A DNA stretch of 64,000 bases from Patescibacteria group bacterium (GCA_016861265.1 BOLA01000001.1:598229-662228), one strand, 5' to 3'. Counted from the first letter of the stretch, positions 20,435-61,316 are shown. Numbers and translations: made by a program. Notes: generated by a model from the sequence alone, not told the origin.

Positions 20435-20456
20435 TATCTTCAATCTAAAGTCATTC

Positions 20457-22242: not shown

Positions 22243-23466
22243 TTACAATTTGAATACATCCATTAAAAAGTCGGTAAATGTTCTCTTTTTCTTCACCTGT
22301 GGCAGCATAGTTTGAGACTGAGTCTGCAACTGTGTCTTCATAGAGTCAATGTGGCCTCCATGAACAATTATATTGTTTTTGGAAAGTTCCTGGTGTAATC
22401 GTGCAATAAGTAAGTTCTTATGTTCTAAAAGCTGGTTCATGCTGTTGTACATAGCCTTATTGTCCTGATTGTTGGCTTTAAGCTGGTCAATTTCTGCATT
22501 TAACCTGTTTACCTTATCGTTTAATTCCTTAAACTCCAGCGCTTCTTTTACTAATTTTGCATGGTCGTCTCCTTCTACAAGTTTCTTTAATAGTTCCATT
22601 TCGGCAACCCCAGTGTTTAAATGATAGTTTAAATCATTTTGACTTGGTTCCTTTCCTAAAACTTTTAGAAATACCTTTTTTATCATTTCTTTTCTTTCCT
22701 CACGATCCATTAGTATAGGTTTATTTGGAGTTGTGGAGTTGAATGGTGAGCTCGGATTGTTAAAAGATGATAATGGGGAGTTCCCAGCAAAACCAGGGGC
22801 TTTAGGAGCTTGGGGAGCGAAAGGGGATGGTGATGTAAAACTAGGCATTGGTGTTCTTCCTCCATTAAAGGCTGGTAAGGCTTTTGCTGTATATTTTAAC
22901 TTTGGCGCTACATTCACAATATACTCATTAACTGAGTCTGCGATTGCTTTTGCCAATTCATCAAGCTTGCTTTCGTCTTTTAGAATTTGAATATCATCCG
23001 AATTATCAATGTAAAGACATTCTATTGCTGTAGAAATAACATTTGATTGGTTCAGAATTATAAGTGAGCCCAATTCATGCTCGTATTCACTTTTTACTCC
23101 TTGATTTTGATACCCTGTAATTTTGCAGATTCCTTCAACTATTGAGTCTGCAAATATTTTGGAGTTATTGTCCGGAGATGCAGCTCCCTCAAACCAGCCT
23201 TCAATTCCTCTTTTTCCACCATCATTAACATGAATTTCAAGGAAAATGTCTCCAAGTTCTCTGGAATACCCTGTTTCTTTTATCCAATCAATTCTTTTTA
23301 ATAGTTGAAGATCTAAGGGTACGGCCTGGTACTCAATTTTGTGAGAATCTAAGTAGGGTAGAGTCTTCTTTAAAATTTTTCTTGTAATATCAGCTTCTCG
23401 TAAATCTCCGAAAACCTCACCGGGATTTTCTAATGTATGAGCAGCAGATATGAGTAACCTTGGCAT
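22243..23466 (-). CDS. N-acetylmuramoyl-L-alanine amidase family (Amidase_3-like) domain fused to a Pro-rich linker and a C-terminal coiled coil
   Basis: N-terminal 180 aa align block-for-block with Amidase_3 (SAAHT for AGHGG, EIHVND for SIHANA, GVKSE..LIILNQSNVISTAIECLYIDN for the C-terminal block). The rest is a P/S/N-rich linker plus heptad-rich helices. Confidence 0.6.
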   Translation of the reverse strand: MPRLLISAAHTLENPGEVFGDLREADITRKILKKTLPYLDSHKIEYQAVPLDLQLLKRIDWIKETGYSRELGDIFLEIHVNDGGKRGIEGWFEGAASPDNNSKIFADSIVEGICKITGYQNQGVKSEYEHELGSLIILNQSNVISTAIECLYIDNSDDIQILKDESKLDELAKAIADSVNEYIVNVAPKLKYTAKALPAFNGGRTPMPSFTSPSPFAPQAPKAPGFAGNSPLSSFNNPSSPFNSTTPNKPILMDREERKEMIKKVFLKVLGKEPSQNDLNYHLNTGVAEMELLKKLVEGDDHAKLVKEALEFKELNDKVNRLNAEIDQLKANNQDNKAMYNSMNQLLEHKNLLIARLHQELSKNNIIVHGGHIDSMKTQLQTQSQTMLPQVKKKRTFTDFLMDVFKL

Positions 23467-36312: not shown

Positions 36313-36354
36313 ATTTTAATGAAATATATTTCTAATTTTATAGAATAGTTGGTA

Positions 36355-41193: not shown

Positions 41194-42249
41194 TTATGGA
41201 TATAAATAAATACTTTCTTGATGTTCTGCGTATGTCTCCGAAAAGTATATATTTGCCTGTGCATCGTGCCTAAAATAGTAGTAACTTGACTGCTTAGGGT
41301 AAATTGCTGCAAAAATTGATAATACTCCTGGACTATTTATTGGTGTTGGCATTAGTCCTGCATACATATATGTATTATATGGATTATCAATCTGGGTCTC
41401 TTGTATAGTAGATCTAGGATCGTCTCTTCTAGTAAAGAAATTTATTGTTGCATCTGATTGGAGAGGCATACCATCTGCAATCCTATTATGGAACACACTT
41501 GAAATTAATCTTCTATCATCACTCCCTCCCGATTCTTTTTCGATTACCGAAGCTAGGATTAGTGCGTCATAAAAAGTGGGAGTTTCTGGGGTTGTATCTT
41601 TAGTATTAATTTCGTTTTCTTCTAATCTATTAATTAAGTTTCTAATCTGAGTATTAATAAATATTAGTGCGGTGGTATCGGCATCTAAATTGTATGTATC
41701 TGGAAACAAAAAACCTATCAGAGGTTTGTCAGAGGGTTTATTCAGGCTTAAGAATGTTTGAACGTCTTCATCGAAAGTATAGTTGGCCGGATTTTCGCTA
41801 ATCGCCAAGTACTCATTAGCTGAAAATTTTGAATCATCGCCTAATGCAGCAATTGCAGTATTAATAATGTCTGCGGCTTGATCAGGTCTCAATGCTTCCC
41901 GTAGTGTTACAGTGATTGAGGACTTGAATACTCCCGTTTCTAATTTTTGTATTAGTTCGGAAAATGTAAGATTTTTAGGAACAACGTATGTCCCAACCTT
42001 AATATTAGGGGAAAGATCGTTAACTCTTAGATAAATCTTTAGAGCCAATTCGCTTTTTATAAGACCCTTTTCTTCGAGCTCCTTAGAAATTGTATTTAGG
42101 TTATCACCTTCTTCTACAGTAATTTCTTCCGTTGCGGTGCTATCAGATGCAGGTGTATTTTCCATTCCTTTATACCAGCTATACGCCACAAATATTCCTC
42201 CTCCACAAAGTAGAATTACTATTAATACAACGGCTAAACAATTTTTCAT
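41194..42249 (-). CDS. mltG: endolytic murein transglycosylase MltG (YceG family)
   Basis: N-terminal TM and the YceG core with the catalytic Glu context (ILASVIEKESGG...RLISSVFHNRIADGMPLQSDATINF). Confidence 0.8.
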   Translation of the reverse strand: MKNCLAVVLIVILLCGGGIFVAYSWYKGMENTPASDSTATEEITVEEGDNLNTISKELEEKGLIKSELALKIYLRVNDLSPNIKVGTYVVPKNLTFSELIQKLETGVFKSSITVTLREALRPDQAADIINTAIAALGDDSKFSANEYLAISENPANYTFDEDVQTFLSLNKPSDKPLIGFLFPDTYNLDADTTALIFINTQIRNLINRLEENEINTKDTTPETPTFYDALILASVIEKESGGSDDRRLISSVFHNRIADGMPLQSDATINFFTRRDDPRSTIQETQIDNPYNTYMYAGLMPTPINSPGVLSIFAAIYPKQSSYYYFRHDAQANIYFSETYAEHQESIYLYP

Positions 42250-42641
42250 TATAAATTCTTAAAATCTAAATATTCCTGGAGTATTATTCTAGCAGATTCA
42301 CTGTCTAGTTTCCCCGATTTATCCTTCTTCACAAACTGTGATGCAGCAATGCTTGTCATTACCTCATTCCATAAAACGACTTCCTTGTTAAATTGAGTCT
42401 TTATTGAATTAGCAAACTTCTTAACATTTTCTGACATTTGAGTTGGCTTATCGTCGTACCCCAGTGGAATACCAATTATTATAAAACTGGGATTGTACTT
42501 GTTAAAAAGCGCAGCTATATTCCCGAATAATTCATTCTCTTCTTTGTATACTATGGGGCTTGTAGCAACTGCGATCTTTTCTGTATCGTCGCTTAAGGCT
42601 ACACCTAATCTTTTTGTCCCGTAATCAAAGCCAATTATCAT
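42249..42641 (-). CDS. ruvX: putative pre-16S rRNA nuclease / Holliday-junction-resolvase-like YqgF (RuvX)
   Basis: MIIGFDYGTKRLGVALSD is the RNase H-like YqgF start. 130 aa. Confidence 0.85.
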   Translation of the reverse strand: MIIGFDYGTKRLGVALSDDTEKIAVATSPIVYKEENELFGNIAALFNKYNPSFIIIGIPLGYDDKPTQMSENVKKFANSIKTQFNKEVVLWNEVMTSIAASQFVKKDKSGKLDSESARIILQEYLDFKNL

Positions 42642-45646: not shown

Positions 45647-47002
45647 ATGCTAAAAGATTATTATGAATTGTTTATGGATCAGAATTTAACTCCTACACAG
45701 CCAAATACTAACCCTGTTAGTGATATACAGCCACATTTGCCGTTGGCATCTGCACCTTCTCCTGTGCAGCCTGCTGCACAAGCTCAACAGTCCGCAGTAA
45801 TACCGAGTACAGAGCCAATAACGGTTTCGAATAAGCCAACACAGAATCAATTAGATGAGGCGGCGCAGGGGGCCGATGCTTACGATATGAATGTATTCGA
45901 TGAAATTACACTTTTAAAGAAAAAAGTGGCAGAGGCAAACTTACCTCAAGCATTAAGAGAGAAGGCACAAGGTATGATTTTAAGATTGGTAAAAATGTCT
46001 CAAAAGGGAAATTTTTCCGCTGAATTTGAACCTGTCTCTGAATACATTAATTGGATAATTAAAATTCCCTTTGGACAATACACCCAAGACAACATTGAGA
46101 TTGATACTGTAAAAGCTACACTTGATAAGTACAATTATGGTCTTGAGCCGGTGAAAAATAGAATACTAGAGTATTTAGCGGTATTAAAGTTACAAAATAA
46201 AACTAATATTCAGGTCGAAACTAGCGAATTAAGTATATCCGATGAAATGAAGAGACTCCAGGGTAATTCTTCTCATGCACCAATTCTTTGTTTTGTGGGA
46301 ATTCAAGGGGTAGGTAAAACGTCTATAGCTAAGGCTATTGCCACAGCATTGGATAGAAAGTTTATGAGATTGGCTTTAGGAGGAATGGGTAATGTAACAG
46401 AAATTAGAGGAATTCCCAGGGGTAGCGAAGGAGCAGAGCCAGGTCAAATAATAAAATCATTAGTGCGAACTGGAGTAATGAATCCTTTGATTCTACTGGA
46501 CGAAATTGACAAAACAAGTTCTCAGAGTGGCGTTAGGACAGATGTCATGGCAGCTTTGCTTGAAATTTTAGATCCGGAGCAGAACTCGACATTCTCTGAT
46601 AAATATTTAGATTACCCAATAGATCTATCTAAATGTATATTTATTTGTACGGCAAATAACTTAGGAGGAATCACGGCTGCTTTGCTAGACCGTCTTGAAG
46701 TTATACGTTTCGGCAGTTATACCGACAGTGATAAAGTTATGATCGCTAAAAATTATCTACTGCCAAAAGTTCGTGAGGCTACAGGGTTGGGAGAAGATCA
46801 GTTAGCCTTTGCAGATGACGTATGGCCTACAGTAATTAGACCTCTGGGCTTTGACGCGGGAGTTAGACAACTGGAAAGAACTTTAACAGAACTAGCAAGA
46901 AAAGTGGCATTGCAAATTGTTAGGGGCACAGCTAAAAGTGTAACAATTACGAAGGAAAATTTTAGAGAGTTTATTCCAGAAGATATTGGAGTTTATTCAT
47001 AA
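45647..47002 (+). CDS. Lon-like AAA+ ATPase lacking both the LON N-terminal substrate domain and the S16 protease domain
   Basis: The AAA+ module is collinear with Lon: the N-terminal helical end, Walker A (ILCFVGIQGVGKTSIAKAIA), MRLALGGMGNVTEIRGIPRGSEGAEPGQIIKSL, Walker B (LILLDEIDK), ALLEILDPEQNSTFSDKYLDYPIDLS, LLDRLEVIRFGSYTD and GVRQLER. The ORF stops exactly where the protease domain would begin and is followed by its own terminator. The N-terminus is a Pro/Gln-rich low-complexity region. Confidence 0.7.
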   Translation: MLKDYYELFMDQNLTPTQPNTNPVSDIQPHLPLASAPSPVQPAAQAQQSAVIPSTEPITVSNKPTQNQLDEAAQGADAYDMNVFDEITLLKKKVAEANLPQALREKAQGMILRLVKMSQKGNFSAEFEPVSEYINWIIKIPFGQYTQDNIEIDTVKATLDKYNYGLEPVKNRILEYLAVLKLQNKTNIQVETSELSISDEMKRLQGNSSHAPILCFVGIQGVGKTSIAKAIATALDRKFMRLALGGMGNVTEIRGIPRGSEGAEPGQIIKSLVRTGVMNPLILLDEIDKTSSQSGVRTDVMAALLEILDPEQNSTFSDKYLDYPIDLSKCIFICTANNLGGITAALLDRLEVIRFGSYTDSDKVMIAKNYLLPKVREATGLGEDQLAFADDVWPTVIRPLGFDAGVRQLERTLTELARKVALQIVRGTAKSVTITKENFREFIPEDIGVYS

Positions 47003-47623: not shown

Positions 47624-47762
47624 TAAAATTTATATATAGGAATTATATCATCACTTTGTTACATATGTAAACACTTTCCTTATAAAATAAGGCTAGTAGC
47701 CTCTAATGTACAATGTAAGGATTTCTGGTATATTGTTATAGAATTATTCAAAATTATCAAAA

Positions 47763-48986
47763 ATGTTTGGAAATAATAGAAATAAGAAAATAGTGAGCAG
47801 AAGCTCAAACTATCATTTGGCCATCGATATCGGTACTGAATTCGTTAAATCTGCTGTATTTAAAGAAGAGGATAACGAAGTTATTATATTGGGCTACAGT
47901 AGAATAAAACAAAGAGAGTCATCAATGTATGCGGCATTTATAATTAATTTGCAGGCGGTTATTGAGGCATGCGACAGAGGAGTTGGGGAAGCAGTTGCTC
48001 AGGCAATGGAAAAAGAGGGAGATAAATTTGTAATTCCTAACGATGTAATTATAGGTATTGCCGGTGAGTTGGTTCACGGAGTAACAATTATGGTTAATGT
48101 GGAAAGAGACAATCACGAAGCTAAGATTACACAAAAGGAGATCGACAAATTCGTAGAAAAAGTAAAAAAGTATACATTTTCTAGTACAGTGGAAGAAATC
48201 TCGCGAGAAATGGGGTTAAAAGCAAGTCAAGTTATAGAAGTAAATACAACCATTAACAGTGTTTATATTGATGGAATGAAGGTTATAAACCCATTAGGTT
48301 ATTCCGGTAACGAATTAGTTTATAAGGTATTTTCAACATTTGCACCCAAGATTCATTTAGATTCAATTAACCAAGTAGCCGATGCTTTAAATTTAAGATT
48401 AAGCAAGATTGTAGTAGAGCCCTATTCACTAGCGGTAGGCTTAAGAAATATGAAAGATCAAGATGCAAATGCCATAATTATTGATGTCGGAGGTGGTACT
48501 ACCGACGTTGCGTTGGTGAGCAATGGAGATATTATAGGTACAAAAATGTTTGCCATTGGCGGTAAGGTTTTTACAAAGAGAGTGCAGAGGGAGCTTGGCG
48601 TTGATTATGAAGAAGCTGAAAAAATAAAAATAGATTACTCGAATGGTGCTGTTTCCAAAGATGTCGACCTTAAATTAAGTAAAGCTTTTGAGATGGATAT
48701 TTCAACCTGGTTAACCGGAGTTGAAATAGCTTTAGAAAGTTTTAACGATGTAAAAGAGTATCCAAGTCAGATTTATATTTGCGGTGGTGGAGCATTGCTG
48801 CCTGAAATTCAGGAGGGTCTAATGACTTACCCATGGCTACAGACCTTGAATTTTAAAAAGTTTCCAAAAGTGAGCTTTATATTCCCTAATGCGTTGAGTA
48901 GTGTTTTGGATAAAACTAAGAGTGCTACTTTACCTATGGATGTAACTCCGCTAGCATTAGCTAGAATGCATTTAGAAAATTTATAA
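47763..48986 (+). CDS. second actin-fold ATPase of the FtsA/PilM family (not the ftsA at 8701)
   Basis: YHLAIDIGTEFVKSAVF (phosphate-1), IIDVGGGTTDVALVSNGDIIGTKMFAIGGKVFT (phosphate-2/adenosine) and the C-terminal actin-fold blocks. 407 aa. Confidence 0.7.
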   Translation: MFGNNRNKKIVSRSSNYHLAIDIGTEFVKSAVFKEEDNEVIILGYSRIKQRESSMYAAFIINLQAVIEACDRGVGEAVAQAMEKEGDKFVIPNDVIIGIAGELVHGVTIMVNVERDNHEAKITQKEIDKFVEKVKKYTFSSTVEEISREMGLKASQVIEVNTTINSVYIDGMKVINPLGYSGNELVYKVFSTFAPKIHLDSINQVADALNLRLSKIVVEPYSLAVGLRNMKDQDANAIIIDVGGGTTDVALVSNGDIIGTKMFAIGGKVFTKRVQRELGVDYEEAEKIKIDYSNGAVSKDVDLKLSKAFEMDISTWLTGVEIALESFNDVKEYPSQIYICGGGALLPEIQEGLMTYPWLQTLNFKKFPKVSFIFPNALSSVLDKTKSATLPMDVTPLALARMHLENL

Positions 48987-49001
48987 ATTAATTTTAATAA
49001 A

Positions 49002-51146
49002 GTGTCGATTTCGTCATCCGAAAAAATTTTTATTGACCCTAGGGAGGAAATAACCTTTATTGTTGAACGTCTTTTAAAGGCGGAAAAAGACAGGGTTATT
49101 CTTGTCGTTCCTCAAAATTCCTTGCTACTAAGTAGTTTAGTTAGTATAGATATTCTTTTTAGAAAATTAGTTAGAACAAAGAAACTTGCGATTATTGTCA
49201 CAGAAGATGAATATGGTAAGTCTATTGCCTCTAAAGCAGGATTTGTAGTAGTAGATAAAGTAAGTCAGATTACAAATGAGCAGTGGAACCTAGGAAATAA
49301 CCGAAAAATTTCCATAAAAGAAATCTTAGACGAGAGAAAGAAGGCTTTGTTGGCCAATATTAGTGGTGAAAGTCATGACATAGAAGAGCTGCCTGAAATT
49401 CCAGGTACCGAAGATATAGAAGAGTATCAGGTTACGGAGCAGGAAATGGACGAAGTTGTAACGAAAAGTGTGGGATTGCCATACGAAGAGGTTTTAGAGA
49501 AGAAAGAAGAGATTCTTGATGAAGTAGAAGATGCAGTGGAGTTGGTTAATAATCAAACTGATGTAATAGAAGAATCACCTGTGGTACCTGAGGTGCCAAC
49601 TGCGGAAGATTTAGAAAAACAGGAACTAGAATCTTCTCTAAAAAAGTACGCAAAGCCAAGAAGAGAGGTTAAGGAAGTTGAATTAGACGGTATAAAGCTT
49701 GTGTCTGGCGGTGATATAAAGAGTTACATTGATTCTAAAGAAAGTGCTAAAATGGCAGATAGTAACAATTCTTTCACTCAAATGACAGACATAAATATAG
49801 ATAGAAAAATTAAAAAGGTGGGCTCTTCGTCCTTTACAGGAAAAGACTTTACAAAAAAAGTAACAGACAAAGGTGGTCTCGGGGCTCTGTTTTCGAGATT
49901 TAGCTTGAAACGAAGAAACCCGGATTTTAGAGACGAAAATGACTTTATAAAAAAAAAGAATAGAAAAAAAATTCTAATTACTACTTTTGTATTATTTATT
50001 CTATTGTTCGCTGTAGGAGGCTATGTGTTAGCGTTTCAGGTATCAACAGTAGATATTACTTTAACATTAAGAGCGCAAGATGTAAGCACATCTGCAACTG
50101 TATTGTTAAGCACTAGTGCGGAAGAACTCAGTCTGGAGAGTCCAATTACAATTCCTGCAAAGGAATATTCAATACCAGCCGATAATTTAAGTATTTCTAA
50201 GACCGGGACTGCTGATGGCAATAGTAAGAGAGGCGCTAAAGCAAAAGGGGTCGTAACAATTTATAATCTTACAGCTGAAAGTGTTACATTGGGAGCGGGA
50301 ACAAAGTTTAAAAATGTTACAAATGGATTAATTTATGTTTCCACAACTGAAGTTGTATTAGATCCGGCTACTGTCAGTTCAAATATTAAAACTCCAAGCA
50401 CTAAAGATAATGTTGCACTAGAGGCTGAAAATTTTGGACCTCAATTTAACATCGAAGTTTCTGATAAAACAAGATTCAGCATTGAAAGTTATAGTACAGA
50501 GGAAGAAATGAGTGCAACTGCATTCCAATCATTTCAGGGGGGAACTGAAGAGGCATTTACATCTGTCTCGCAAGAGAATTACGATAAATTAAAAGAAACA
50601 ATTGTACCGGATTTAAAGAAACAAGGGTTAGACAGGTTAAAATCCCTAACCGAGAGTGGATACCAGTTAATTGAAGGTACAGTTACATACGATGAAACAA
50701 AAACCCCTGAGTCTTTGCCAAAGGTTGGAGAAGAGGCAAAAGATAAGACTTTTAATTTAACAGTTCAGATAGGTATTAAGGGACTTGCAGTTAAAACGAG
50801 TGATCTAACAGAAGCTGTCAGTGCTGTTTTAAAGAATAATGCTCAGAATACGAATGGTGGAAATCTTCAGATTGATGACATAATGAATCCGCAAATCGAT
50901 AAGGTAGAAAAGAATGGAGATGATTATGTAGTAACTGTTTCTTCTAAAGGTTCGGTTAAAACCCAAATTACTCCTGAGCAAATGAAGAAAGATATATCTG
51001 GATTGACTATTCAACAGGCAAATGATTACTTTAGATTAATCGATTATATTCAGGATTATAGAGTGAATTTTAATCCAGGATTTGTACCTGACAGTATAAA
51101 ACGTGTCCCTTCCGATACATCACGAATTAATATTAAAACAAAATAA
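49002..51146 (+). CDS. bitopic membrane protein (714 aa): cytoplasmic N-terminal domain plus acidic linker, single TM, large extracytoplasmic C-terminal domain
   Basis: GTG start 16 nt after the FtsA/PilM-like gene. TM at about residues 330-352 (ILITTFVLFILLFAVGGYVLAF). No recognisable family. Confidence 0.5.
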   Translation: MSISSSEKIFIDPREEITFIVERLLKAEKDRVILVVPQNSLLLSSLVSIDILFRKLVRTKKLAIIVTEDEYGKSIASKAGFVVVDKVSQITNEQWNLGNNRKISIKEILDERKKALLANISGESHDIEELPEIPGTEDIEEYQVTEQEMDEVVTKSVGLPYEEVLEKKEEILDEVEDAVELVNNQTDVIEESPVVPEVPTAEDLEKQELESSLKKYAKPRREVKEVELDGIKLVSGGDIKSYIDSKESAKMADSNNSFTQMTDINIDRKIKKVGSSSFTGKDFTKKVTDKGGLGALFSRFSLKRRNPDFRDENDFIKKKNRKKILITTFVLFILLFAVGGYVLAFQVSTVDITLTLRAQDVSTSATVLLSTSAEELSLESPITIPAKEYSIPADNLSISKTGTADGNSKRGAKAKGVVTIYNLTAESVTLGAGTKFKNVTNGLIYVSTTEVVLDPATVSSNIKTPSTKDNVALEAENFGPQFNIEVSDKTRFSIESYSTEEEMSATAFQSFQGGTEEAFTSVSQENYDKLKETIVPDLKKQGLDRLKSLTESGYQLIEGTVTYDETKTPESLPKVGEEAKDKTFNLTVQIGIKGLAVKTSDLTEAVSAVLKNNAQNTNGGNLQIDDIMNPQIDKVEKNGDDYVVTVSSKGSVKTQITPEQMKKDISGLTIQQANDYFRLIDYIQDYRVNFNPGFVPDSIKRVPSDTSRINIKTK

Positions 51147-51166: not shown

Positions 51167-51190
51167 AAACCTCCCTTTGGGAGGTTTTCT
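51167..51190 (+). terminator. rho-independent terminator (AAACCTCCC-TTTG-GGAGGTTT)
   Basis: Stem-loop directly after the stop at 51146. Confidence 0.65.
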
Positions 51191-53382: not shown

Positions 53383-53709
53383 ATGAGTAACTTACTTTTT
53401 GTCTTTTACTGGTGGTACGTAATACTAGTAAAAGAATTCTGGCGAAGCTATGTATTGGGTAGATTAGTTTATAACTTGAATCTAACAAATACTTTGCCCA
53501 TGGCAAAGCATATATCGGATCCATTGTTCCAGGACGATTCCGGTATCGGCAAATCTTTCGGTTTTATTATTAGATTTATTTGGATAGGAATTGGATCTTC
53601 TATTAGTGTAATCGTAACAGTTCCCTTCTTCATTTTTGGAATATTTTTATTGGTATTGCCCTTATTACCGTTAATACAATTAGTTACATACTTAAATACA
53701 TTATTATGA
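53383..53709 (+). CDS. small polytopic membrane protein, 4-nt overlap with (likely translationally coupled to) the Clp-like ATPase
   Basis: Three hydrophobic helices. ATGA overlap with the next start. Confidence 0.4.
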   Translation: MSNLLFVFYWWYVILVKEFWRSYVLGRLVYNLNLTNTLPMAKHISDPLFQDDSGIGKSFGFIIRFIWIGIGSSISVIVTVPFFIFGIFLLVLPLLPLIQLVTYLNTLL

Positions 53710-56285
53710 ACGGTAAGGTACTACTAGCAAAATACAAAAATTCAAGAATATTCGTAGACTTTGGTTCACTTACATTCTTTAAGGGAGATAAACATGCTCT
53801 TTACAAACTTGAACAGAATACAGGAACCTTATTAGAAATATTTACAGCACTTCTTTTTGGAATACCCATTGTTATTCAAATCTTGAATGGAGAACTTAAT
53901 CTCTTGAATTTTTTGATACCCGATAATCTACTAAACTATTTGCCGTATATAGGTATCTACACATTTATTTTTGCAAGATTTTTAAAGCGAGATAGGAATA
54001 AATTCGATGAGGCGGTGAAAAACTATAATTTGCTTGCTGTAAATAAGAAAATTGAAGCGGGTGCTGACATGGAACTTACTGTAAATCACTACATTGACTT
54101 TGAAACACTTACAATATTAGATAAAGCTTTGGCAGATAAGGAAAGAGCTTTTATAGTTACATTATGTAAACTACTAACAGAAGATACAGAAATTGAACAC
54201 TTCTTAGCAAACAGATTAGGTATTAATAGAGATAAGTTTATAGAAGTTGTAAACCATAATAGTCACAATGCAAATTTCACACTAAATAATGCTTATAGAA
54301 CTTTATTTCTTTACTTGTTCGATGAAGCCCTAAAGCTTGAATCTAATACTATTAATAAGTTCGTATTATTCTTTGTTTTAAATAAATACTTTTTGAAAAA
54401 TATTTATTTTGACCTAGGTGTAGCAGAATTGGAATTAGAGGGTTTGAGAATTTGGTTTAAGAATGAAACAAAACAAAGAGAGTACTATATTAAGTGGGAA
54501 AGACTATCAAAATTCAAACCAAAAGGAGATGTTAATAGGGCATACACATCTAGACCTACACCAGTATTAGATGAGTATGCGGAAGATTTAACAAGTCAGG
54601 CTGCACTTGGTTTATTCATGTTGTCCGTGGGCAAGGATCAAGAATTGAATAGGGTTGTAGAAATTATGGAAAGAGACAAGGCGAGTGCATGTATGATTCT
54701 CGGAGATCCGGGCGTTGGAAAAACCAGATTCTTAAGGCATTTAGCAACAAGAATGGTTGTGGAAGATATTCCAGGTAGACTCTATGATCACAGATTGTTA
54801 TCCATTGATTTAAATAAAATCCTTACTAAAATTGGTACAGTTGATTCGTTTAAGCAGGTTCTTCAGAGAATTTTTGAAGAGGTTCGTTACTCAGGAAATG
54901 TGATTCTAGTACTTGAAGAATTTAGTCAAATACTTAACATAAGAGAAGAATCGAAACTGGAGGTTGTTAATTTGATTGTAAATGCAATAAATAATTTAAA
55001 CCTAAGATTAATTGCTACTTCTAATAATTCAAGTTATTCAAAATATGTTAAACCGTTAAAATCACTTTCCGCGTTGTTCGATGTTGTAGAGCTTAAGGAG
55101 CCATCTTCAAATGTAGCTCTACAAATTCTAATCGATGAGGTTCCAAGAATTGAGAAAAAATACAAAGTGAGTGTAAGGATTAATTCTTTAAAAAGAATTG
55201 TAGAATTTGCACCAAAGTTCGATCAGGACAGAGTAATGCCCGATAAAGGTATAGATCTATTTGAAGAGGCCTGTTTAGCAGCAAAGAATAGAGGGTTAAC
55301 ATTCCTAGATGTGTCAACGGTTGATGAAATTCTTTCTGAAAAAGTAGGTGTAAAAGTAGGTAATTTATCTGAAGGGGAAAGTCATACATTAATGGCTATG
55401 TCGGAACGAATGCATGACAGAGTTATTGGGCAGAATGAGGCTGTAGATGCTGTCGCATCTGCAATTAAAAGATCTCGTTCAGGACTGACAAATACTAAAA
55501 AACCAATTGCGTCATTTTTATTTTATGGACCTACTGGTGTTGGGAAAACAGAAGTGGCTAAAACTTTGGCCGATGTCTACTATGGCAGTGAAAACTTATT
55601 GATCAGACTAGACATGTCGGAATATCAGGAAGATCAAAATCTTAATAGAATTATTGGATATACCGATGACAAAGGCAATTTTATAGGCGGATACTTGACT
55701 GAGTCAGTCAGATCAAGACCTTTCTCGTTGGTGTTGTTGGACGAAATAGAGAAGGCTAATAAAAAGGTCTTAGATCTATTCCTACAAGTTTTAGATGAAG
55801 GTACTTTAACTGATGGTTTAGGTCGAAAGGTAGATTTTACTAATACCATAATAATTATGACTTCAAATGTAGGTTCTGACTTAATTGCGAAAGAAATCTA
55901 CGAAGGTAAAAAATACCACGATGTGGAAAAAGATGTGACAAATAAACTAAGGGAATCTTACAGGATTGAATTTTTAAACAGATTTGATAAATTAATAATG
56001 TTTAGACCGTTATCAAAAATTGAGATTGAGCAGATTGTGATGCTGATGTTGAAAAAAATAGATGATAATTTAATGCAAAAAGGAATTGGTATTTCCTGGA
56101 ATGAGGCAACTTTGGTAGAATTAGCAAACCTTGGTTATAGCGAGATGTTTGGTGCAAGAGAATTAAAAAGAATTGTGCAGGAAAACATAGAGAATAAATT
56201 AGCAGATTTAATAATTCAGGGTAAACTACGAAGCGGTACAGAAGCAGTTTTTAATGGATTAACTGTACAACAAGTGGTAAATTAA
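53706..56285 (+). CDS. Hsp100/Clp-family double AAA+ ATPase (ClpA/ClpC-type, no long M-domain) with an unusual N-terminal region containing hydrophobic segments and Clp_N-like repeats
   Basis: D1: Walker A (MILGDPGVGKTRFLRHLA), EDIPGRLYDHRLLSIDL, NVILVLEEF, PDKGIDLFEEAC. Linker: HDRVIGQNEAVDAVASAIKRSRSGL. D2: FLFYGPTGVGKTEVAKTLA, LIRLDMSEYQED, SLVLLDEIEKANKKVLDLFLQVLDEGTLTDGLGRKVDFTNTIIIMTSNVGS, C-terminal GARELKRIVQ. The N-terminal 280 aa hold two hydrophobic helices and ELTVNHYIDFETLTILDKAL-type Clp_N repeats. No [LIV]G[FL] ClpP-docking tripeptide is visible after the TSNVGS block. Confidence 0.75.
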   Translation: MNGKVLLAKYKNSRIFVDFGSLTFFKGDKHALYKLEQNTGTLLEIFTALLFGIPIVIQILNGELNLLNFLIPDNLLNYLPYIGIYTFIFARFLKRDRNKFDEAVKNYNLLAVNKKIEAGADMELTVNHYIDFETLTILDKALADKERAFIVTLCKLLTEDTEIEHFLANRLGINRDKFIEVVNHNSHNANFTLNNAYRTLFLYLFDEALKLESNTINKFVLFFVLNKYFLKNIYFDLGVAELELEGLRIWFKNETKQREYYIKWERLSKFKPKGDVNRAYTSRPTPVLDEYAEDLTSQAALGLFMLSVGKDQELNRVVEIMERDKASACMILGDPGVGKTRFLRHLATRMVVEDIPGRLYDHRLLSIDLNKILTKIGTVDSFKQVLQRIFEEVRYSGNVILVLEEFSQILNIREESKLEVVNLIVNAINNLNLRLIATSNNSSYSKYVKPLKSLSALFDVVELKEPSSNVALQILIDEVPRIEKKYKVSVRINSLKRIVEFAPKFDQDRVMPDKGIDLFEEACLAAKNRGLTFLDVSTVDEILSEKVGVKVGNLSEGESHTLMAMSERMHDRVIGQNEAVDAVASAIKRSRSGLTNTKKPIASFLFYGPTGVGKTEVAKTLADVYYGSENLLIRLDMSEYQEDQNLNRIIGYTDDKGNFIGGYLTESVRSRPFSLVLLDEIEKANKKVLDLFLQVLDEGTLTDGLGRKVDFTNTIIIMTSNVGSDLIAKEIYEGKKYHDVEKDVTNKLRESYRIEFLNRFDKLIMFRPLSKIEIEQIVMLMLKKIDDNLMQKGIGISWNEATLVELANLGYSEMFGARELKRIVQENIENKLADLIIQGKLRSGTEAVFNGLTVQQVVN

Positions 56286-56304: not shown

Positions 56305-56685
56305 ATGAATAAAAAAAAGTTGATCTCAATAATTGTCTTAGCCCAGAGTGTTTTAATGGCATTGCCAGTAGCAGCTCAAGGACTGACTAATGTTAGTCAG
56401 AATTATGCAATTCCTAACCCTACAAGATACAGTAGTCTGGAAGACATAATTAATGCATTGACTTCGCTAATTAGACCTGTCTTTATTATTACATTTGGTG
56501 CAATGATACTTTATGGAGGATGGGTTAGATTAACATCTCAAGGTAATCCGGATAAAGTTAAGTCAAGCTCGCAAATCATAGTTGCAGCAATTGTAGGTTT
56601 TGCAATTGCAGTGTTTGCACCTACAATTGTTGACTTTGCGGGTAAATTGCTAGGTATTCAAGGTGGATTAATACAGAATCAATAA
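56305..56685 (+). CDS. pilin-like protein paralog 1 (VirB2/TrbC-like topology: signal peptide, two hydrophobic helices joined by a short polar loop)
   Basis: Signal (LISIIVLAQSVLMALPVAAQG). Helix-1 (VFIITFGAMILYGGWVRL), loop (TSQGNPDKVKSSSQ), helix-2 (IIVAAIVGFAIAVFAPTIV). Confidence 0.55.
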   Translation: MNKKKLISIIVLAQSVLMALPVAAQGLTNVSQNYAIPNPTRYSSLEDIINALTSLIRPVFIITFGAMILYGGWVRLTSQGNPDKVKSSSQIIVAAIVGFAIAVFAPTIVDFAGKLLGIQGGLIQNQ

Positions 56686-56686
56686 T

Positions 56687-57298
56687 ATGAAACTAAAAGC
56701 TTTATTATTCATAGTAATTACAATAATCCTTAGTTCGGGTATTAAGTTATCGGCACAGTCTACAGACTGTATAGCCCCATATTTTATCCCTGATGATTGT
56801 AGTGTGCCTTATGTACCTGGTAAATCAGGGGGTTATACTGCAGATTTAAATTGTCAGATCGTTCGAATTACTAAACCTGGAACCGAGGAGGCTAAATGTT
56901 GTCCCAATATTTGTGTAAATGAAAATGGTGATAGGGTAAGTGCCCAGCTTCCGTCCGAAATTACGCAGACCGAGGTATTTGGAACTACTATTAGAATTAA
57001 TCCGGATAATTCAGGGACGATTATAAATATACTGTTTACAACAATATTGGGTCTTGTTTCTGTTTACGCAATTGTGAGAGGTATTTATGTTACTGGAGTA
57101 AAAAGACCAATGGCTATTACACCCGACCAAATCGCGGAAATTAATAAAGAACTTACAAATTTAATAATAGGTGTAGTTATTTGCTGGGGCTTTATAATCT
57201 TAATTCAAGTAGTCGCCAACCTATTAGGAGTAGGTCAGTTAAATAATCTAGATATTTCCGGCGGAGAATCTGGAGGAACAATTATTACTATTAAATAA
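56687..57298 (+). CDS. pilin-like protein paralog 2 with an N-terminal Cys-rich extracytoplasmic module
   Basis: Signal, 7 Cys in the first 80 mature residues, then helix-1 / KRPMAITPDQIAEINKELTN loop / helix-2. Confidence 0.5.
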   Translation: MKLKALLFIVITIILSSGIKLSAQSTDCIAPYFIPDDCSVPYVPGKSGGYTADLNCQIVRITKPGTEEAKCCPNICVNENGDRVSAQLPSEITQTEVFGTTIRINPDNSGTIINILFTTILGLVSVYAIVRGIYVTGVKRPMAITPDQIAEINKELTNLIIGVVICWGFIILIQVVANLLGVGQLNNLDISGGESGGTIITIK

Positions 57299-57858
57299 TG
57301 AAGACTTTATTGCTAACAATAATATTAAGCATATTCTTCTTTGCTCCTGTGTATGCACAAGAAAATTCAGGCGGATTAGCAAATCAGACGGTCACATGCG
57401 TTAACTGTACAATAGATAACAATATTGGGCTAGAGGAAATTAGAGTTCCTGTTTTTGCTAGCTTTATTGATTTCAATACTGAAAATGCGAGCATATTTAG
57501 CTGGGTATCGTTCATCGGAGCTTTAGCTACCGTAGGATTGGTTATTTTCTGGATTTTTCTTCTGGTTAAAGCTGGTGTAAGAGGATTGCAGAGCCAGGGC
57601 AACGCAGATACATTGGCTGAGGCATTTAAACAGGTTCAATCGGTACTTATTGGAGCTGCAATCTCACTGTTCTTCCCCCTAGTACTAAGTATTATAGGTG
57701 TATTCTTTGGAATTGGCACTATCTTTAGTTGGCCTAAAATGTTTCAGTTTTGCGATGAGTCGTCTGGTGTTCAATTTTATTATCAGGCTCTGTTAGCTGA
57801 CGATGTAAAAGGAGATAAGTCAGCCGCAGAGGCTAAATGTAACCCAATAGGAGAATAA
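57298..57858 (+). CDS. pilin-like protein paralog 3 with a Cys-containing C-terminal tail
   Basis: Signal. Helix-1 (VGLVIFWIFLLVKAGVRGL), loop (QSQGNADTLAEAFKQ), helix-2, then a C-terminal tail with 2 Cys. Confidence 0.5.
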   Translation: MKTLLLTIILSIFFFAPVYAQENSGGLANQTVTCVNCTIDNNIGLEEIRVPVFASFIDFNTENASIFSWVSFIGALATVGLVIFWIFLLVKAGVRGLQSQGNADTLAEAFKQVQSVLIGAAISLFFPLVLSIIGVFFGIGTIFSWPKMFQFCDESSGVQFYYQALLADDVKGDKSAAEAKCNPIGE

Positions 57859-57859
57859 T

Positions 57860-58291
57860 ATGAAAAAATTAATATTGCTAACTTTTATAATCGCTTTTTC
57901 GGTATTGCCTTTCAGCATTAAGGCTGCTACTGCTTCAGATGTCTTGCCATGCGATCAGTACGATACATCGGCCTTTGATGCGTGTGGGGATGTTAACGGA
58001 CAAGTTACTGATCTTATAAAGTTCGCTTTGGCAGCAGCTTTCGGAGCAATTATATTATATGGCATTTTCTTGATAATTAAGGCTGCACTTACTATAATTA
58101 GGAGTAATGGTGATCCGGGCCAAGTAGAGGCCGGTACAAATATTATAAGAGGTGTTTATATTGGCATAGGAATCATCTTTATAGGAATAGTAGGGCTTAT
58201 TATTGTTATTGCATTCTTTGGTGCAGGTGGTATATTGAATACAGCAGTAAATACACCAGGTAATACTGTAATACCAATAATTACAAATTAA
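57860..58291 (+). CDS. pilin-like protein paralog 4
   Basis: Signal. Helix-1 (AIILYGIFLIIKAALTIIRS), loop (NGDPGQVEAGTN), helix-2 ending AFFGAGG. Confidence 0.55.
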   Translation: MKKLILLTFIIAFSVLPFSIKAATASDVLPCDQYDTSAFDACGDVNGQVTDLIKFALAAAFGAIILYGIFLIIKAALTIIRSNGDPGQVEAGTNIIRGVYIGIGIIFIGIVGLIIVIAFFGAGGILNTAVNTPGNTVIPIITN

Positions 58292-58317
58292 ATTATTTAT
58301 TTTATTAAAATACTCTT

Positions 58318-58806
58318 ATGTTTAGAAATAAGAAACTTGCAGGAATCATGGTAGGAGCATTTTTATTAGTTGCACCATTGGTTTCTCCATTGTTAACAGT
58401 TCAAGCTCAATCAAGAAACTTGATTTGTACTGTTTTCCCATTTATTAATAGTGTTGGAGCATTTGGAATCAGCTCATTGTGCGGTGATGTTAATGCAACA
58501 AGTACATCTGATACAATCAAAAGTACTTTTAACTTAATTGTGTCTTTAATATTTGTAGCAATAATCATTTTCTCAATCTACGTGATTATTAGAGCTGCAA
58601 TTAAATACATTAGATCAGAAGGAGATCCAGCAAAAATTGAAGAGGCTCAAAAGGCTATCAAGTCGGTGTTTATCGGTATTGCTGCATTATTTGTAGGCTT
58701 AATCGGTATTATCATTATTATTGCATTCTTTGGTGCAGGTGGTGCATTAACTACAAATCAGGTTAATAACCAGGTAAACCCACTATTGAATTCAATCTTG
58801 AATTAA
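58318..58806 (+). CDS. pilin-like protein paralog 5 (closest paralog of no. 4; shares IRSxGDP...AFFGAGG)
   Basis: Signal. Helix-1, loop (IRSEGDPAKIEEAQKAIKS), helix-2 ending AFFGAGGAL. Confidence 0.55.
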   Translation: MFRNKKLAGIMVGAFLLVAPLVSPLLTVQAQSRNLICTVFPFINSVGAFGISSLCGDVNATSTSDTIKSTFNLIVSLIFVAIIIFSIYVIIRAAIKYIRSEGDPAKIEEAQKAIKSVFIGIAALFVGLIGIIIIIAFFGAGGALTTNQVNNQVNPLLNSILN

Positions 58807-58824
58807 GTTAATTAGAATTTTATA

Positions 58825-58851
58825 AAGCCCAGGCCAAGCCTGGGCTTTTCA
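58825..58851 (+). terminator. rho-independent terminator (AAAGCCCAGGC-CAA-GCCTGGGCTTT) closing the five-gene pilin-like operon
   Basis: Perfect 11-bp stem plus a T-rich tail. Confidence 0.7.
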
Positions 58852-58916
58852 TTTCTTCTTGATTAGCCTTAACCTTTAATCTATAGTGTAATAAGTATTA
58901 ATATTAATAATTTCTC

Positions 58917-59810
58917 ATGGGAAAGAATAAAAAACTCCTTTATCTGCTACTCATACTTAATCTGATTTTTGGTCACGTAGCGATTGTTAGTGCACAATTA
59001 CAGTCTTTCGATTTTTCAGGGAATAATGCTGAAAGTTATCAATGTTTTGATAAGGAAACAGGAGAGAACCTAACAGATGAAGATACTGAGCCAAGTGGTG
59101 TTAAATTAAATGTGCAAGGTCCTGATGATTTTGGTAATTTCTATTGTTGTGGGGGCACTAATTCGGGTTATACACCAGTAGGGTTAGATTGCGCTGCGGG
59201 TCAAACAAAGATCATTGCTCAACTAAAACCACCTGCGCTACAGCAAATAGAAGTTTGGTTCGTAAGAATTTTATATGCAATTTGGGGACTTGTAGCATCT
59301 CTATCTTTTCTATTTCTAGTAAAACTTGGTTATGAATATATTATCTCAAGAGGAGATCCTACCAAGATTACTGAAGTTAGAAAGAAGATTGTGAATTACA
59401 TTATTGGTTTTGCACTGGTTTTCCTGGCTGTTCCTATTTTGACTACAGTATTCCGTCTTTTAGGAATAAATACAAATGCGCAATGTTACAACGTAAATAT
59501 GCCAGGGTTTCAATTCTTTTATAGCTCTCTATGTACCGATCCTAAAGGGGTAATTGCAGCAAAATTTGCCTCCAACCCATGTACGGCATTTAATGACGGA
59601 TCAGATCCTGAAGGCATAATCTGTAAAGGAACTGGCTATGAAGGTGTTACGAGAGGTTGTGGAGTTATTAGGGGTATTTATAATATTTCATTAACTTGCG
59701 ATGTTCAAACAGGTGACACTGCAGCAACATGGTGCAAAACCAGAGAACTTACTTTGCCGCTGTTGGGACTCGTTTACTGTGATTCATCCTGTAACCCTAC
59801 AAGGTGTTAA
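58917..59810 (+). CDS. pilin-like protein paralog 6 with Cys-rich N- and C-terminal extracytoplasmic modules
   Basis: Signal. Cys-rich N-module, helix-1 (ILYAIWGLVASLSFLFLVKLGY), loop (ISRGDPTKITEVRKK), helix-2, and a C-terminal domain with about 12 Cys. Confidence 0.5.
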   Translation: MGKNKKLLYLLLILNLIFGHVAIVSAQLQSFDFSGNNAESYQCFDKETGENLTDEDTEPSGVKLNVQGPDDFGNFYCCGGTNSGYTPVGLDCAAGQTKIIAQLKPPALQQIEVWFVRILYAIWGLVASLSFLFLVKLGYEYIISRGDPTKITEVRKKIVNYIIGFALVFLAVPILTTVFRLLGINTNAQCYNVNMPGFQFFYSSLCTDPKGVIAAKFASNPCTAFNDGSDPEGIICKGTGYEGVTRGCGVIRGIYNISLTCDVQTGDTAATWCKTRELTLPLLGLVYCDSSCNPTRC

Positions 59811-59819: not shown

Positions 59820-61316
59820 ATGTTTAGATTTAAATCATTTAAAACTAACGGTTCTGTGATTAACTTTAAGGACTCAAGTCTTAGTCTGGAGTCCTTAAAC
59901 TCATTTCTTGCGAATCTAGAAAATCTATCATTAAATTCAGAAATTGAGTTTAATGTTGAAAATTTAGACGGCACAATTGCAAATTATAAGTTGATTAACG
60001 ATGGAACTATAAAGGCGTATAAAGACAATAAAAGTATTGTTGAAAATGATTTTTATAGGTTAGTCAAAAATAATTTTCATCTTGAATTGACTCCCCAAAT
60101 TATGCAGGCACGAATAGTGCAATACAATTCTCAGATAAGGGAAACGATTAGTAAATTATCTATACCAATTTCGCCTGACTTGGTAAATAAAATCGCCGAG
60201 GCAAAAAATACTATTGAATCTGTAAAAAATTCAATCGAATCCAGCCTAAGTGAGGAACAAAAAGATAAATACTCGAGGCTCACAGAGCTAAATTCAAGAT
60301 TGAATTCGATTCAGAATCAGATAGATTCTTTTCAAGGAAGTAAAAAGAGTAAAGAGGATATTACCACTAATATTAAAAAATATAATACCGATAAATCCAC
60401 TATAAAACAGATGATGGAATCTGTGGGTCTACTTATTAAAACAAGAGATGAATTAAAGCAGAAAGTGCTAAGTTATAACCATTTAATACAAGATGCTGAC
60501 AAGGTTAATCAGCTAAAACAGCAAAAAATGCAATTTCAGAATTCTCAACTCTTTACAAAATCACAGTCTGCAATTAATAGTTCCGAAGATGATTCTGCTA
60601 GCTCAAACTCAAAATTCAAACTTAAACTTAGCATAATTCCTATTTTGTTATTCCTAAATATTGCAATTTCTATTGTAGGCTTTCTTTACTCTTACGATTT
60701 TAACGTTCTAGTCGTAGCGGTAGTATCAACTGTTATCTTAATGACAGCTTATATTGTCTCTAAATTCTTTAGCGATTCATTGGAAGACCTGAATGAAGAT
60801 TCAAGTAGAGCAGAGGTAATTGATATTAAGCAAGAATCAAATCCATTGGCTAAAGAAGACCCAAATGCCCAATTATTCATAAATTCTGCCTGGGTTAATG
60901 CATTAAACAACGAACTGAATGCAGTAGAACAGAATATTCAAAAAAACCTTAATGGAAAAGACTACGAGTCAATAAAGAATGAATTACAACAAATTGAAAA
61001 TTTAATAGTGCAGGAAGAAAAGAAATTAACGGATTTATCCGCTAATTCAATTACTTCGGATGAATACTATAAAAAGAGAAGGGAGGCAGATATTCTTAAA
61101 ATAGAGCGAGAAAATCTTGAATTTGGACTTAAGATTGATTCAAGCCTAAACGACCAGAGAATATCTGCCGAAAAAACATTAAAAGAACTCTTGGACAAGC
61201 AAGCATTTGCCAGTAAGTTGTCTATGAGTTTCCCAGTATTTTTAGTAAAAACGAGTGAAATTCAGCACACAAACATTGATTTATTGAATCAGATAGTACT
61301 AGTTCTGTCCAATTAA
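59820..61316 (+). CDS. bitopic coiled-coil membrane protein (498 aa; TM near residue 280)
   Basis: Long heptad-rich N- and C-terminal regions flanking LSIIPILLFLNIAISIVGFLY...VVAVVSTVILMTAYIV. Confidence 0.45.
   Translation: MFRFKSFKTNGSVINFKDSSLSLESLNSFLANLENLSLNSEIEFNVENLDGTIANYKLINDGTIKAYKDNKSIVENDFYRLVKNNFHLELTPQIMQARIVQYNSQIRETISKLSIPISPDLVNKIAEAKNTIESVKNSIESSLSEEQKDKYSRLTELNSRLNSIQNQIDSFQGSKKSKEDITTNIKKYNTDKSTIKQMMESVGLLIKTRDELKQKVLSYNHLIQDADKVNQLKQQKMQFQNSQLFTKSQSAINSSEDDSASSNSKFKLKLSIIPILLFLNIAISIVGFLYSYDFNVLVVAVVSTVILMTAYIVSKFFSDSLEDLNEDSSRAEVIDIKQESNPLAKEDPNAQLFINSAWVNALNNELNAVEQNIQKNLNGKDYESIKNELQQIENLIVQEEKKLTDLSANSITSDEYYKKRREADILKIERENLEFGLKIDSSLNDQRISAEKTLKELLDKQAFASKLSMSFPVFLVKTSEIQHTNIDLLNQIVLVLSN

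Follow-up and report, generated by a model that had tools for sequence, protein, structure and literature searches.

Pairs formed by an actin-like ATPase and a bitopic membrane protein organise cell division (FtsA), elongation (MreB–RodZ) and pilus assembly (PilM–PilN). In the first of these, subdomain 1C of FtsA binds the cytoplasmic tail of the bitopic protein FtsN (PMC7613929). Here we describe a gene pair of this general kind in a stretch of 64,000 nucleotides (nt) from a Patescibacteria group bacterium (GCA_016861265.1, BOLA01000001.1:598229-662228), referred to below, at its full length, as the window. The first gene of the pair encodes an FtsA-like ATPase of 407 amino acids (aa), and the second encodes a bitopic protein of 714 aa, here called the partner. 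The ATPase is a member of a separate family, paralogous to FtsA and PilM and identical with neither, and in at least four phyla the two genes are conserved as a pair, in most cases next to each other and often with an overlap.

In a full-text literature search we found no paper describing the pair. Its members carry inconsistent names in the databases: PilM, "FtsA domain-containing", "rod shape-determining protein", "baseplate J/gp47" and "hypothetical".

Results

A family separate from FtsA, PilM and MreB

As the original prediction had it, a genuine ftsA is present at 8.7 kb in the window, identified by its Pfam FtsA and SHS2_FTSA domains, and is followed by ftsZ (Table 1). The ATPase of the pair shares 23% identity with this true FtsA over 212 aa. 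Its Pfam matches are all partial: FtsA (50 bits), PilM_2 (42.8 bits against a cut-off of 27, below the FtsA match and covering residues 194-354 only) and MreB (33 bits). The Pfam SHS2_FTSA model finds no match in it. The curated models are failed as well, both for FtsA (72.5 bits against a cut-off of 175.85 for the equivalog TIGR01174; 35.7 against 409 for PRK09472) and for PilM (TIGR01175, 38.1 against 133), and the NCBIfam models of MreB give about 28-31 bits against cut-offs of 293-366.

An alignment of the family was scanned against 185,579 species genomes, which yielded 80 loci (L005-L084) to be added to four fetched earlier (L001-L004). The scores against the family profile are distributed bimodally. 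Proteins of L001-L039 match end to end with 290-655 bits, except for two family loci, one cut by a contig end and one with a frameshift, that score below this range. Those of L040-L084 match over partial length only, with 66-96 bits. The latter are true FtsA proteins of Bacteroidota, Proteobacteria, Dehalococcoidales and others, and ftsZ is the next gene in almost all of these loci that are long enough. When the true FtsA of the window is used as the query, it scores 168-279 bits against the proteins of L040-L084 and 30-60 bits against the ATPase family. Neither in the window nor in the 39 related loci does ftsZ lie next to a gene of the ATPase family, and the pair never adjoins ftsZ or ftsQ.

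Pairwise identities range from 28 to 81% within the ATPase family and from 32 to 100% within true FtsA (30 sequences), with 17-27% between the two groups. In a neighbour-joining tree of both groups, calculated from capped distances, the ATPase family splits from true FtsA in 100 of 100 bootstraps. A recent duplication of ftsA is therefore ruled out by pairwise identity, reciprocal scores and the tree. Moreover, the FtsA of the window resembles FtsA of Proteobacteria far more than it does its own paralogue; the duplication is ancient. These results, together with the conserved partner described below, bear out the earlier suggestion of a second FtsA/PilM-type ATPase that is no recent copy of ftsA. 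Of the phylogenetic placement that had been proposed, the tree settles the part that concerns FtsA; the placement relative to PilM, MreB and ParM rests on the scores of curated hidden Markov models (HMMs) and on the ranking of folds.

Motifs and fold of the ATPase

The phosphate-1 and phosphate-2 motifs noticed earlier are indeed intact, and they are invariant in the family alignment, as is the adenosine motif (Table 1). Judged by these motifs, the protein looks ATPase-competent. Another motif in the family alignment, GIAGELV, is family-specific.

An AlphaFold2 model of the ATPase, built with a 25-sequence alignment, has a mean predicted local distance difference test (pLDDT) score of 88 and a predicted template modelling (pTM) score of 0.84. 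The order of its secondary structure elements, 1A-1C-2A-2B without 1B, is the FtsA/PilM-type topology. In a Foldseek search with this model, the top matches in the Protein Data Bank (PDB) are full-length FtsA structures (E ~1e-28, template modelling (TM) score 0.75-0.80), followed by PilM (E ~1e-25, TM score 0.56-0.66 on the query). MreB, EutJ and ParM are far weaker (E 1e-10 to 1e-12; for MreB, E 1e-12 and TM score ~0.5).

Across phyla, the 1C insert is as conserved as the 1A/2A core, which would suit 1C as the surface of interaction, by analogy with FtsA–FtsN. Of the globular subdomains, 2B is conserved least. Since 2B is the surface by which FtsA binds FtsZ, this argues mildly against FtsZ binding by the family.

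The bitopic partner

The partner was described in the original prediction as a 714-aa bitopic protein with about 330 aa in the cytoplasm, and this description holds: a single transmembrane helix (residues 324-345) separates a cytoplasmic part of about 323 aa from an ectodomain of about 368 aa. The basic cluster KKKNRKK directly before the helix predicts an N-in/C-out topology.

Sequence models say little about this protein. No Pfam or NCBIfam model matches the window's partner above threshold, PF04865 (Baseplate_J) included; the sub-threshold Pfam match is a GlxA beta-barrel (21.9 bits against 27), and a PDB sequence search with the partner was empty. PF04865 is passed by the orthologue from Natroniella (33 bits against 21.1) and matches homologue P0162 and the partner of the distant locus L001 weakly. 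The AlphaFold2 model, built with 32 sequences, is more informative. It shows a confident alpha/beta domain in residues 1-120 (pLDDT ~90), disordered acidic stretches, and a confident, beta-rich ectodomain in residues 349-714 (pLDDT 82-91). The N-terminal domain has the STAS fold, and Ser45, located at the start of its second long helix, is invariant. The ectodomain has the fold of baseplate wedge proteins. Its conserved positions include no catalytic-looking set of residues and are mostly Gly and Pro, as would be expected if the domain served in structure or binding and not in catalysis.

Across phyla, conservation of the partner is found in its STAS domain and in the core of its ectodomain. 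Two motifs between them, KPRxE…GGDI and FTGKDFTK, are conserved in the alignment of Dojkabacteria-type sequences only. None of 187 family representatives has an FtsA-like domain fused to the partner, and the longer representatives have longer linkers. A motif scan for an INLLP-type peptide ([IVL]N[LIV][LIV]P), which had been suggested for the N-terminus by analogy with PilN, found none in the partner.

Layout of the gene pair

Both genes lie on the plus strand at the positions originally predicted. The intergenic gap is 15 nt, so that the partner starts 16 nt past the last base of the ATPase stop codon. In support of its GTG start, 31 homologues have their first residue at the same position. 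The window is AT-rich (~35% GC), and the open reading frames (ORFs) of the pair are not chance ORFs, since the best homologue of the ATPase reaches E = 1e-251 in a homologue search and the partner profile matches 10,425 cluster-50 representatives at E <= 1e-3 (2,915 of them at E <= 1e-30). Named homologues with 46-56% identity are from Candidatus Dojkabacteria (WS6), which makes a Patescibacteria genome of this type the probable source of the window.

The two genes look like a bicistronic unit, because a hairpin follows the partner and groES has an upstream region of its own. The hairpin is probably the end of the operon; it was scored by the scan in the minus-strand reading, and its role on the plus strand is inferred. 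The promoter-like sequence 5′ of the ATPase gene is a weak lead, as the number of sigma-70-like matches in the region equals the expectation from shuffled sequence.

Table 1 Features of the gene pair and its genomic context (positions counted from the first nucleotide of the window)
Feature	Position	Strand	Basis or remarks
ftsA, canonical	8701-9987	+	Pfam FtsA + SHS2_FTSA; context
ftsZ, 3′ of ftsA	10167-11336	+	Context
mltG (YceG)	41194-42249	-	Pfam; context; with ruvX, directly after the pair in four other phyla
ruvX	42249-42641	-	Pfam; context; with mltG, directly after the pair in four other phyla
Sigma-70-like promoter match TGTACA-16-TATATT, extended TG	47707-47734	+	29 nt 5′ of ATPase start; candidate only
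FtsA-like actin-fold ATPase, 407 aa, ATG start	47763-48986	+	ORF call
Phosphate-1 motif DIGTE, residues 22-26	47826-47840	+	D22, G24 and T25 invariant in family alignment
1C (SHS2-like) insert, approximately residues 105-195	48075-48347	+	Secondary-structure order in model; full-length structural alignment to FtsA
Phosphate-2 motif DVGGGTTD, residues 241-248	48483-48506	+	D241, G243, G245, T246, T247 and D248 invariant
Adenosine motif CGGGALLP, residues 340-347	48780-48803	+	C340, G341-343, L346 and P347 invariant
C-terminal helix DVTPLALARMHLENL, end of ATPase	48939-48983	+	Extension of ~26 residues in relatives absent here
Bitopic partner, 714 aa, GTG start	49002-51146	+	ORF call; STAS-like domain, acidic disordered linker, transmembrane helix, baseplate-J-like ectodomain
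Cytoplasmic STAS (SpoIIAA-like) domain, residues 6-95	49017-49286	+	Best-conserved part of partner across phyla
Acidic disordered linker, residues 121-217	49362-49652	+	32 D/E vs 6 K/R; length varies among relatives
Motif KPRxE…GIxIxxGGDI, residues 218-240	49653-49721	+	Predicted short beta-hairpin; lineage-specific
Linear motif FTGKDFTK, residues 278-285	49833-49856	+	In disordered stretch; lineage-specific
Basic cluster KKKNRKK (residues 317-323) and single transmembrane helix (residues 324-345)	49950-50036	+	Hydropathy peak 2.5; model helix 312-345
Extracytoplasmic beta-rich domain, residues 349-714	50046-51143	+	GlxA-type beta-barrel + baseplate-J/gp47/gp6-like wedge fold
GC-rich hairpin AAACCTCCC-TTT-GGGAGGTTT, then T-rich tract	51167-51187	.	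21 nt past partner stop

Conservation of the pair and its neighbourhood

A homologue of the partner, matching the partner profile end to end, lies directly 3′ of the ATPase gene in nearly every family locus that extends far enough downstream, which answers the synteny check that had been proposed. The exceptions are two Nanosyncoccus loci, in which the partner is a few kb away. Even among distant homologues (L001, L003/L004) an ATPase-like gene is found directly 5′ of the partner. The two ORFs frequently overlap by a few bases, which suggests translational coupling. Among bacteria of the Candidate Phyla Radiation (CPR), the genome scan found the pair in Saccharibacteria, Moranbacteria, Peribacteria and Dojkabacteria. 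Outside of it, the pair occurs in Chloroflexota (Limnocylindria and Chloroflexia), in Dormibacterota and in the isolate genome of Natroniella sp. ANB-PHB2 (Halanaerobiales). The partner is also present in Orenia and in other Natroniella species, where RefSeq names it "baseplate J/gp47 family protein". One locus labelled "uncultured Bdellovibrionales" (L008) carries a CPR-type pair that scores like the Patescibacteria relatives; the label of this metagenome-assembled genome may be a binning or labelling error.

The gene order alaS–ATPase–partner–ruvX–mltG is shared by most Saccharibacteria loci, Limnocylindria, Chloroflexia, Dormibacterota and Natroniella; synteny was probed with the proteins of the window and of Natroniella. 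In the window, ruvX and mltG are located 5 kb upstream of the pair on the opposite strand, so the cluster has been rearranged. The window shares other neighbours with its closer Dojkabacteria-type relatives, namely a gene for a Lon-like AAA protein upstream and groES/groEL downstream.

Several kinds of genes were looked for around the pair. With Pfam, no pilB, pilC, pilN or pilO was found beside it among the window neighbours or in Natroniella (the scan of the other related loci was not exhaustive), and the two fully annotated neighbourhoods contain no flanking genes for pili or secretion. Nor do the loci examined link it to an anti-sigma kinase, a PP2C phosphatase or a sigma factor. Genes for sheath, tube, spike or other baseplate proteins are absent near it in the window, L001, L003 and L036. 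Finally, no relatives were found in 2.9 million viral contigs with lineage-specific search patterns.

A C-terminal tail missing from the window's clade

In most relatives from other phyla, the TPLALA helix of the ATPase is followed by about 26 further residues, which close with an amphipathic helix of basic character (for example, ...KEKIDRILRV and ...LRRVLRAMKV; L005-L037). The hydrophobic moment (muH) of this helix is 0.65-1.0, compared with a background of 0.48±0.13, and the tail resembles the membrane-targeting sequence of FtsA. The ATPase of the window stops 7 residues past the TPLALA helix (muH 0.30). Partners are 683-765 aa long in the window's tail-less clade versus 504-637 aa in the tail-bearing phyla. 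From the missing tail and the longer partners we infer that the partner has taken over membrane tethering in the window's clade, where it is probably the sole membrane tether. The loss of the tail coincides with partners 100-200 aa longer and may reflect a compensatory shift in membrane access.

Apparent orthologues in Southlakia epibionticum

Fitness data on the apparent orthologues come from the tables of a transposon-insertion sequencing (Tn-seq) study of Southlakia epibionticum ML1 (Wang et al. 2023, PMC10633639), the main text of which does not discuss these genes. Table S1 gives the gene order SEML1_0657 (alaS), 0656, 0655, 0654 (RuvX) and 0653 (MltG), with SEML1_0656 annotated as "PilM" (KEGG orthology K03590) and SEML1_0655 as a "baseplate J/gp47 family protein" of 1671 bp; both are flagged as core, Patescibacteria-enriched families (PMC10633639). 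In Table S2, SEML1_0656 is assigned an FtsA-like fold, and the ECOD domains of SEML1_0655 are SpoIIaa-like (residues 6-105), beta-barrel and gp6 C-terminal domain III (PMC10633639). The gene order is the same as in the Saccharibacteria loci (alaS–"PilM"–"baseplate J/gp47"–ruvX–mltG). The sizes, 427 and 556 aa, fall within the 418-445 and 529-607 aa of those loci, and the domain calls are shared as well: an FtsA-like ASKHA fold for the one protein, and SpoIIaa-like, beta-barrel and gp6 domain III for the other. The window differs from these relatives in that its partner is about 160 aa longer in the cytoplasmic linker than SEML1_0655 and in that its ATPase lacks the amphipathic C-terminal tail of the Saccharibacteria proteins.

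In the Tn-seq data, SEML1_0655 is called NE/ES/ES, with normalised reads of 373→34→24, and SEML1_0656 NE/NE/GD, with 2427→660→221 (PMC10633639). The genome also has a canonical ftsA-ftsZ, and a true pilM, SEML1_0104, in its type IV pilus (T4P) locus (PMC10633639 Table S1). Its ftsA and ftsZ do not tolerate insertions, whereas the ATPase gene SEML1_0656 does (PMC10633639). No protein of S. epibionticum is annotated as MreB or RodZ.

Other features of the window and related loci

Downstream of the pair, six small membrane proteins are encoded at 56305-59810. Four of them match PF18895 (T4SS_pilin, VirB2/TrbC-like), and several have Cys-rich N-terminal ectodomains; the array is of the type IV secretion system (T4SS) type and not of the type IV pilus type. 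It is followed at 59820-61316 by a 498-aa coiled-coil-looking protein with a central transmembrane region. Just 5′ of the array (53383-56285) are genes for a 108-aa membrane protein and an 859-aa ClpB-like protein with two AAA+ domains (AAA_2, ClpB_D2-small). Unusually for a disaggregase of the ClpB type, the latter seems to have ~130 hydrophobic, membrane-embedded residues at its N-terminus. The Lon-like AAA+ protein (AAA and Lon_lid) upstream of the pair, at 45647-47002, has a long low-complexity N-terminus and no detected protease domain, and a homologue is also found upstream of the pair in L001.

Near the division genes, a 368-aa ORF at 7479-8585 occupies the ftsQ position 5′ of ftsA. It has no Pfam match at E <= 1e-5, and its identity as FtsQ is putative. 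The region 11412-23466 contains a cell-wall cluster with a sortase (11412-12275), an M23 peptidase (16371-17759), a CHAP protein (19204-19842) and an Amidase_3 protein (22243-23466), interspersed with several ORFs without a family match. A fused HEPN–nucleotidyltransferase is encoded at 13707-14594. At 31336-38643 there is a 1658-aa surface-type protein (two Laminin_G_3, Pur_ac_phosph_N and fn3 domains), followed by a MacB-like transporter with ABC_tran, MacB_PCD and FtsX domains fused in a single polypeptide.

In the Natroniella locus (L036, 3728-5887), ireB is separated from the FtsA-like gene by a 719-aa ORF that has neither an informative Pfam match nor a counterpart in the other loci. A "PilM" of the same length is encoded on a megaplasmid of Anoxybacillus amylolyticus (L085, 3569-5728), between aroA/ccpA and ytxJ-ytxH; the two 719-aa proteins are unrelated. 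At its N-terminus, the Anoxybacillus protein carries an FtsA/PilM-like ATPase domain that matches the family profile with 78 bits. A long beta-rich region forms its C-terminal part, and it has no transmembrane helix and no partner-like region. It is a different FtsA/PilM paralogue outside the ATPase family.

Discussion

Comparison with the described ATPase/bitopic pairs places the new one close to several of them and inside none. With FtsA the ATPase shares the actin fold, the 1C (SHS2-type) insert, the lack of 1B, a TM score of 0.75-0.80 and, in most family members, the amphipathic helix. It differs from FtsA in failing the equivalog model, in an identity of 17-27%, in forming a separate clade and in never lying beside ftsZ. 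The cytoplasmic part of the partner could bind the ATPase in the way FtsN binds 1C of FtsA (PMC7613929), but the STAS domain and baseplate-J-like ectodomain of the partner contrast with the short peptide and SPOR domain of FtsN. The likeness to MreB–RodZ lies in the combination of an actin-like protein with a bitopic protein made of a cytoplasmic globular domain, a linker, a transmembrane helix and a beta-rich extracytoplasmic domain, and in the genomic association with a gene for a cell-wall enzyme, mltG, in several phyla. However, the ATPase is not MreB by score (28-31 bits) or by Foldseek (E 1e-12), and the cytoplasmic domain of the partner is STAS-like whereas that of RodZ is a helix-turn-helix.

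Taking these parallels together, we give a probability of roughly one half to the possibility that the pair is an ATP-dependent, membrane-spanning actin-like module for envelope growth, morphogenesis or division. The ATPase would assemble at the cytoplasmic face of the membrane, and the STAS domain would couple its ATP-dependent state, be it a polymer or a switch, to the partner; in the lineage of the window, the extra linker motifs may add to this contact. The partner would relay or anchor that state across the membrane to the wall-facing ectodomain, which may oligomerise. The pair would thus be a housekeeping module with a logic similar to that of FtsA–FtsN, MreB–RodZ and PilM–PilN. The "second cytoskeletal anchor" offered as one option in the original prediction still seems the best reading in this respect, and a cell-envelope or cytoskeletal module is more likely than a part of a pilus.

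There are several observations that weigh against such a function. A STAS domain is not known as a partner of actin-like ATPases. The similarity of the ectodomain to baseplate J covers only about 135-155 residues and is uninformative on the ligand. The alaS–ruvX–mltG cluster is conserved even in Firmicutes without the pair, so that the neighbourhood proves ancestry more than function. The orthology of the S. epibionticum genes is presumed from synteny, size and annotation or domain calls. In addition, the essentiality of SEML1_0655 could be partly polar on the downstream ruvX, although the tolerance of insertions in the upstream SEML1_0656 makes it unlikely that the depletion is only polar.

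The alternative put forward in the original prediction was a divergent inner-membrane platform of a type IV pilus or secretion system, similar to PilM/PilN and perhaps serving the pilin-like genes 5 kb downstream. The ATPase gene lies immediately 5′ of the gene for a bitopic protein, an arrangement that is formally PilM/PilN-like; the PilM_2 match passes its cut-off, the PilM fold match is strong (E 1e-25), some databases name relatives "pilus assembly protein PilM", and a paralogous array of pilin-like genes is indeed present at 56305-59810. Against this stand the low score to TIGR01175 (38 bits against 133) and the better match to FtsA by both HMM and fold. Unlike PilN, the partner has about 323 cytoplasmic aa, starting with a folded STAS domain and containing no INLLP motif, and its ectodomain is not the ferredoxin fold of PilN/PilO. 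The pair is unlinked to pilB, pilC, pilN and pilO in the window and Natroniella, its neighbours elsewhere being alaS, ruvX and mltG. Moreover, genuine pilM-pilN-pilO genes are encoded separately within T4P loci in Saccharibacteria such as TM7x (PMC12206443; PMC10633639 Table S1). The downstream array consists of VirB2-type T4SS pilins (PF18895) that lie beyond groESL and the ClpB-like gene and are not found in synteny with the pair in other genomes. A pilus or secretion platform is therefore improbable, and the proposed link to the downstream genes was not borne out. Even less credible is a domesticated or remnant component of a phage or contractile-injection baseplate, or a phage-related surface protein, that happens to lie beside an actin-like gene. 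It is suggested by the J/gp47/gp6-like fold of the ectodomain, by the Pfam Baseplate_J matches of relatives and by their RefSeq name. However, the similarity is limited in length, the domain is extracytoplasmic and held by a transmembrane helix that follows a cytoplasmic STAS domain, none of the loci examined offers a phage or injection-system context in the form of sheath, tube, spike or baseplate genes, and the housekeeping chromosomal position is conserved across phyla. A phage origin is also spoken against by the lack of relatives in the viral contigs, as searched with lineage-specific patterns, and by the lack of phage genes nearby.

Two further possibilities stay closer to the cytoskeleton or to signalling, and we consider both unlikely. 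The ATPase might be a specialised FtsA paralogue that acts as a second tether on the Z-ring, with the partner as an FtsN-like divisome recruit. FtsA is its closest solved fold and its closest HMM, most members have the C-terminal amphipathic helix as FtsA does, and a role in growth or division would agree with the fitness defect in S. epibionticum. Yet the 39 loci never place the pair next to ftsZ or ftsQ, a canonical ftsA-ftsZ is kept in the window genome and, by annotation, in S. epibionticum, 2B is the least conserved globular part, and insertions are tolerated in the ATPase gene and not in ftsA or ftsZ. Alternatively, the ATPase could be a monomeric, non-cytoskeletal regulator (of the Hsp70/sugar-kinase ASKHA kind) acting on the STAS domain of a transmembrane sensor, possibly through Ser45 as in SpoIIAA-type partner switching. 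Ser45 is invariant at the N-terminus of the second helix, a position that would match that of the phospho-serine of SpoIIAA; the pair adjoins ireB in Natroniella, and IreB is a phosphoprotein substrate in cell-wall stress signalling; and an ectodomain without a catalytic signature fits binding or sensing. On the other hand, the closest folds are the filament-forming FtsA and PilM and not Hsp70 or kinases, and the FtsA-like amphipathic helix of most members is typical of membrane-bound filaments. Genes for an anti-sigma kinase, a PP2C phosphatase or a sigma factor are not linked to the pair in the loci examined, and the adjacency of ireB and ruvX is generic in Firmicutes.

Returning to the envelope module, one may speculate on a more specific form of it, which we offer only tentatively. 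The pair could represent a third type of transmembrane actin-like system, not recognised before, beside FtsA–FtsN and MreB–RodZ, in which the ATP-dependent assembly of an FtsA-like filament is read out by a STAS partner. The baseplate-J-like ectodomain would then form an ordered assembly outside the cytoplasm that positions or regulates wall remodelling (for example, by MltG) or a surface structure. Such a system would be an ancestral trait of Patescibacteria, Chloroflexota, Dormibacterota and some Bacillota.

Conclusions

The gene pair constitutes a distinct, ancient and very widespread branch of the actin-like ATPase/bitopic protein theme, and its STAS–transmembrane–baseplate-J-like architecture is unusual. 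Its analysis corrects the inconsistent names under which its members are found in the databases. Its function can be tested directly, since the apparent orthologues have fitness phenotypes in S. epibionticum, which is among the few CPR bacteria amenable to genetics. If the pair is a third type of transmembrane actin-like system, it could explain how envelope growth is organised in ultrasmall bacteria without MreB. More generally, the answer could show how bacteria with reduced genomes, which often lack MreB, build and shape their envelope.

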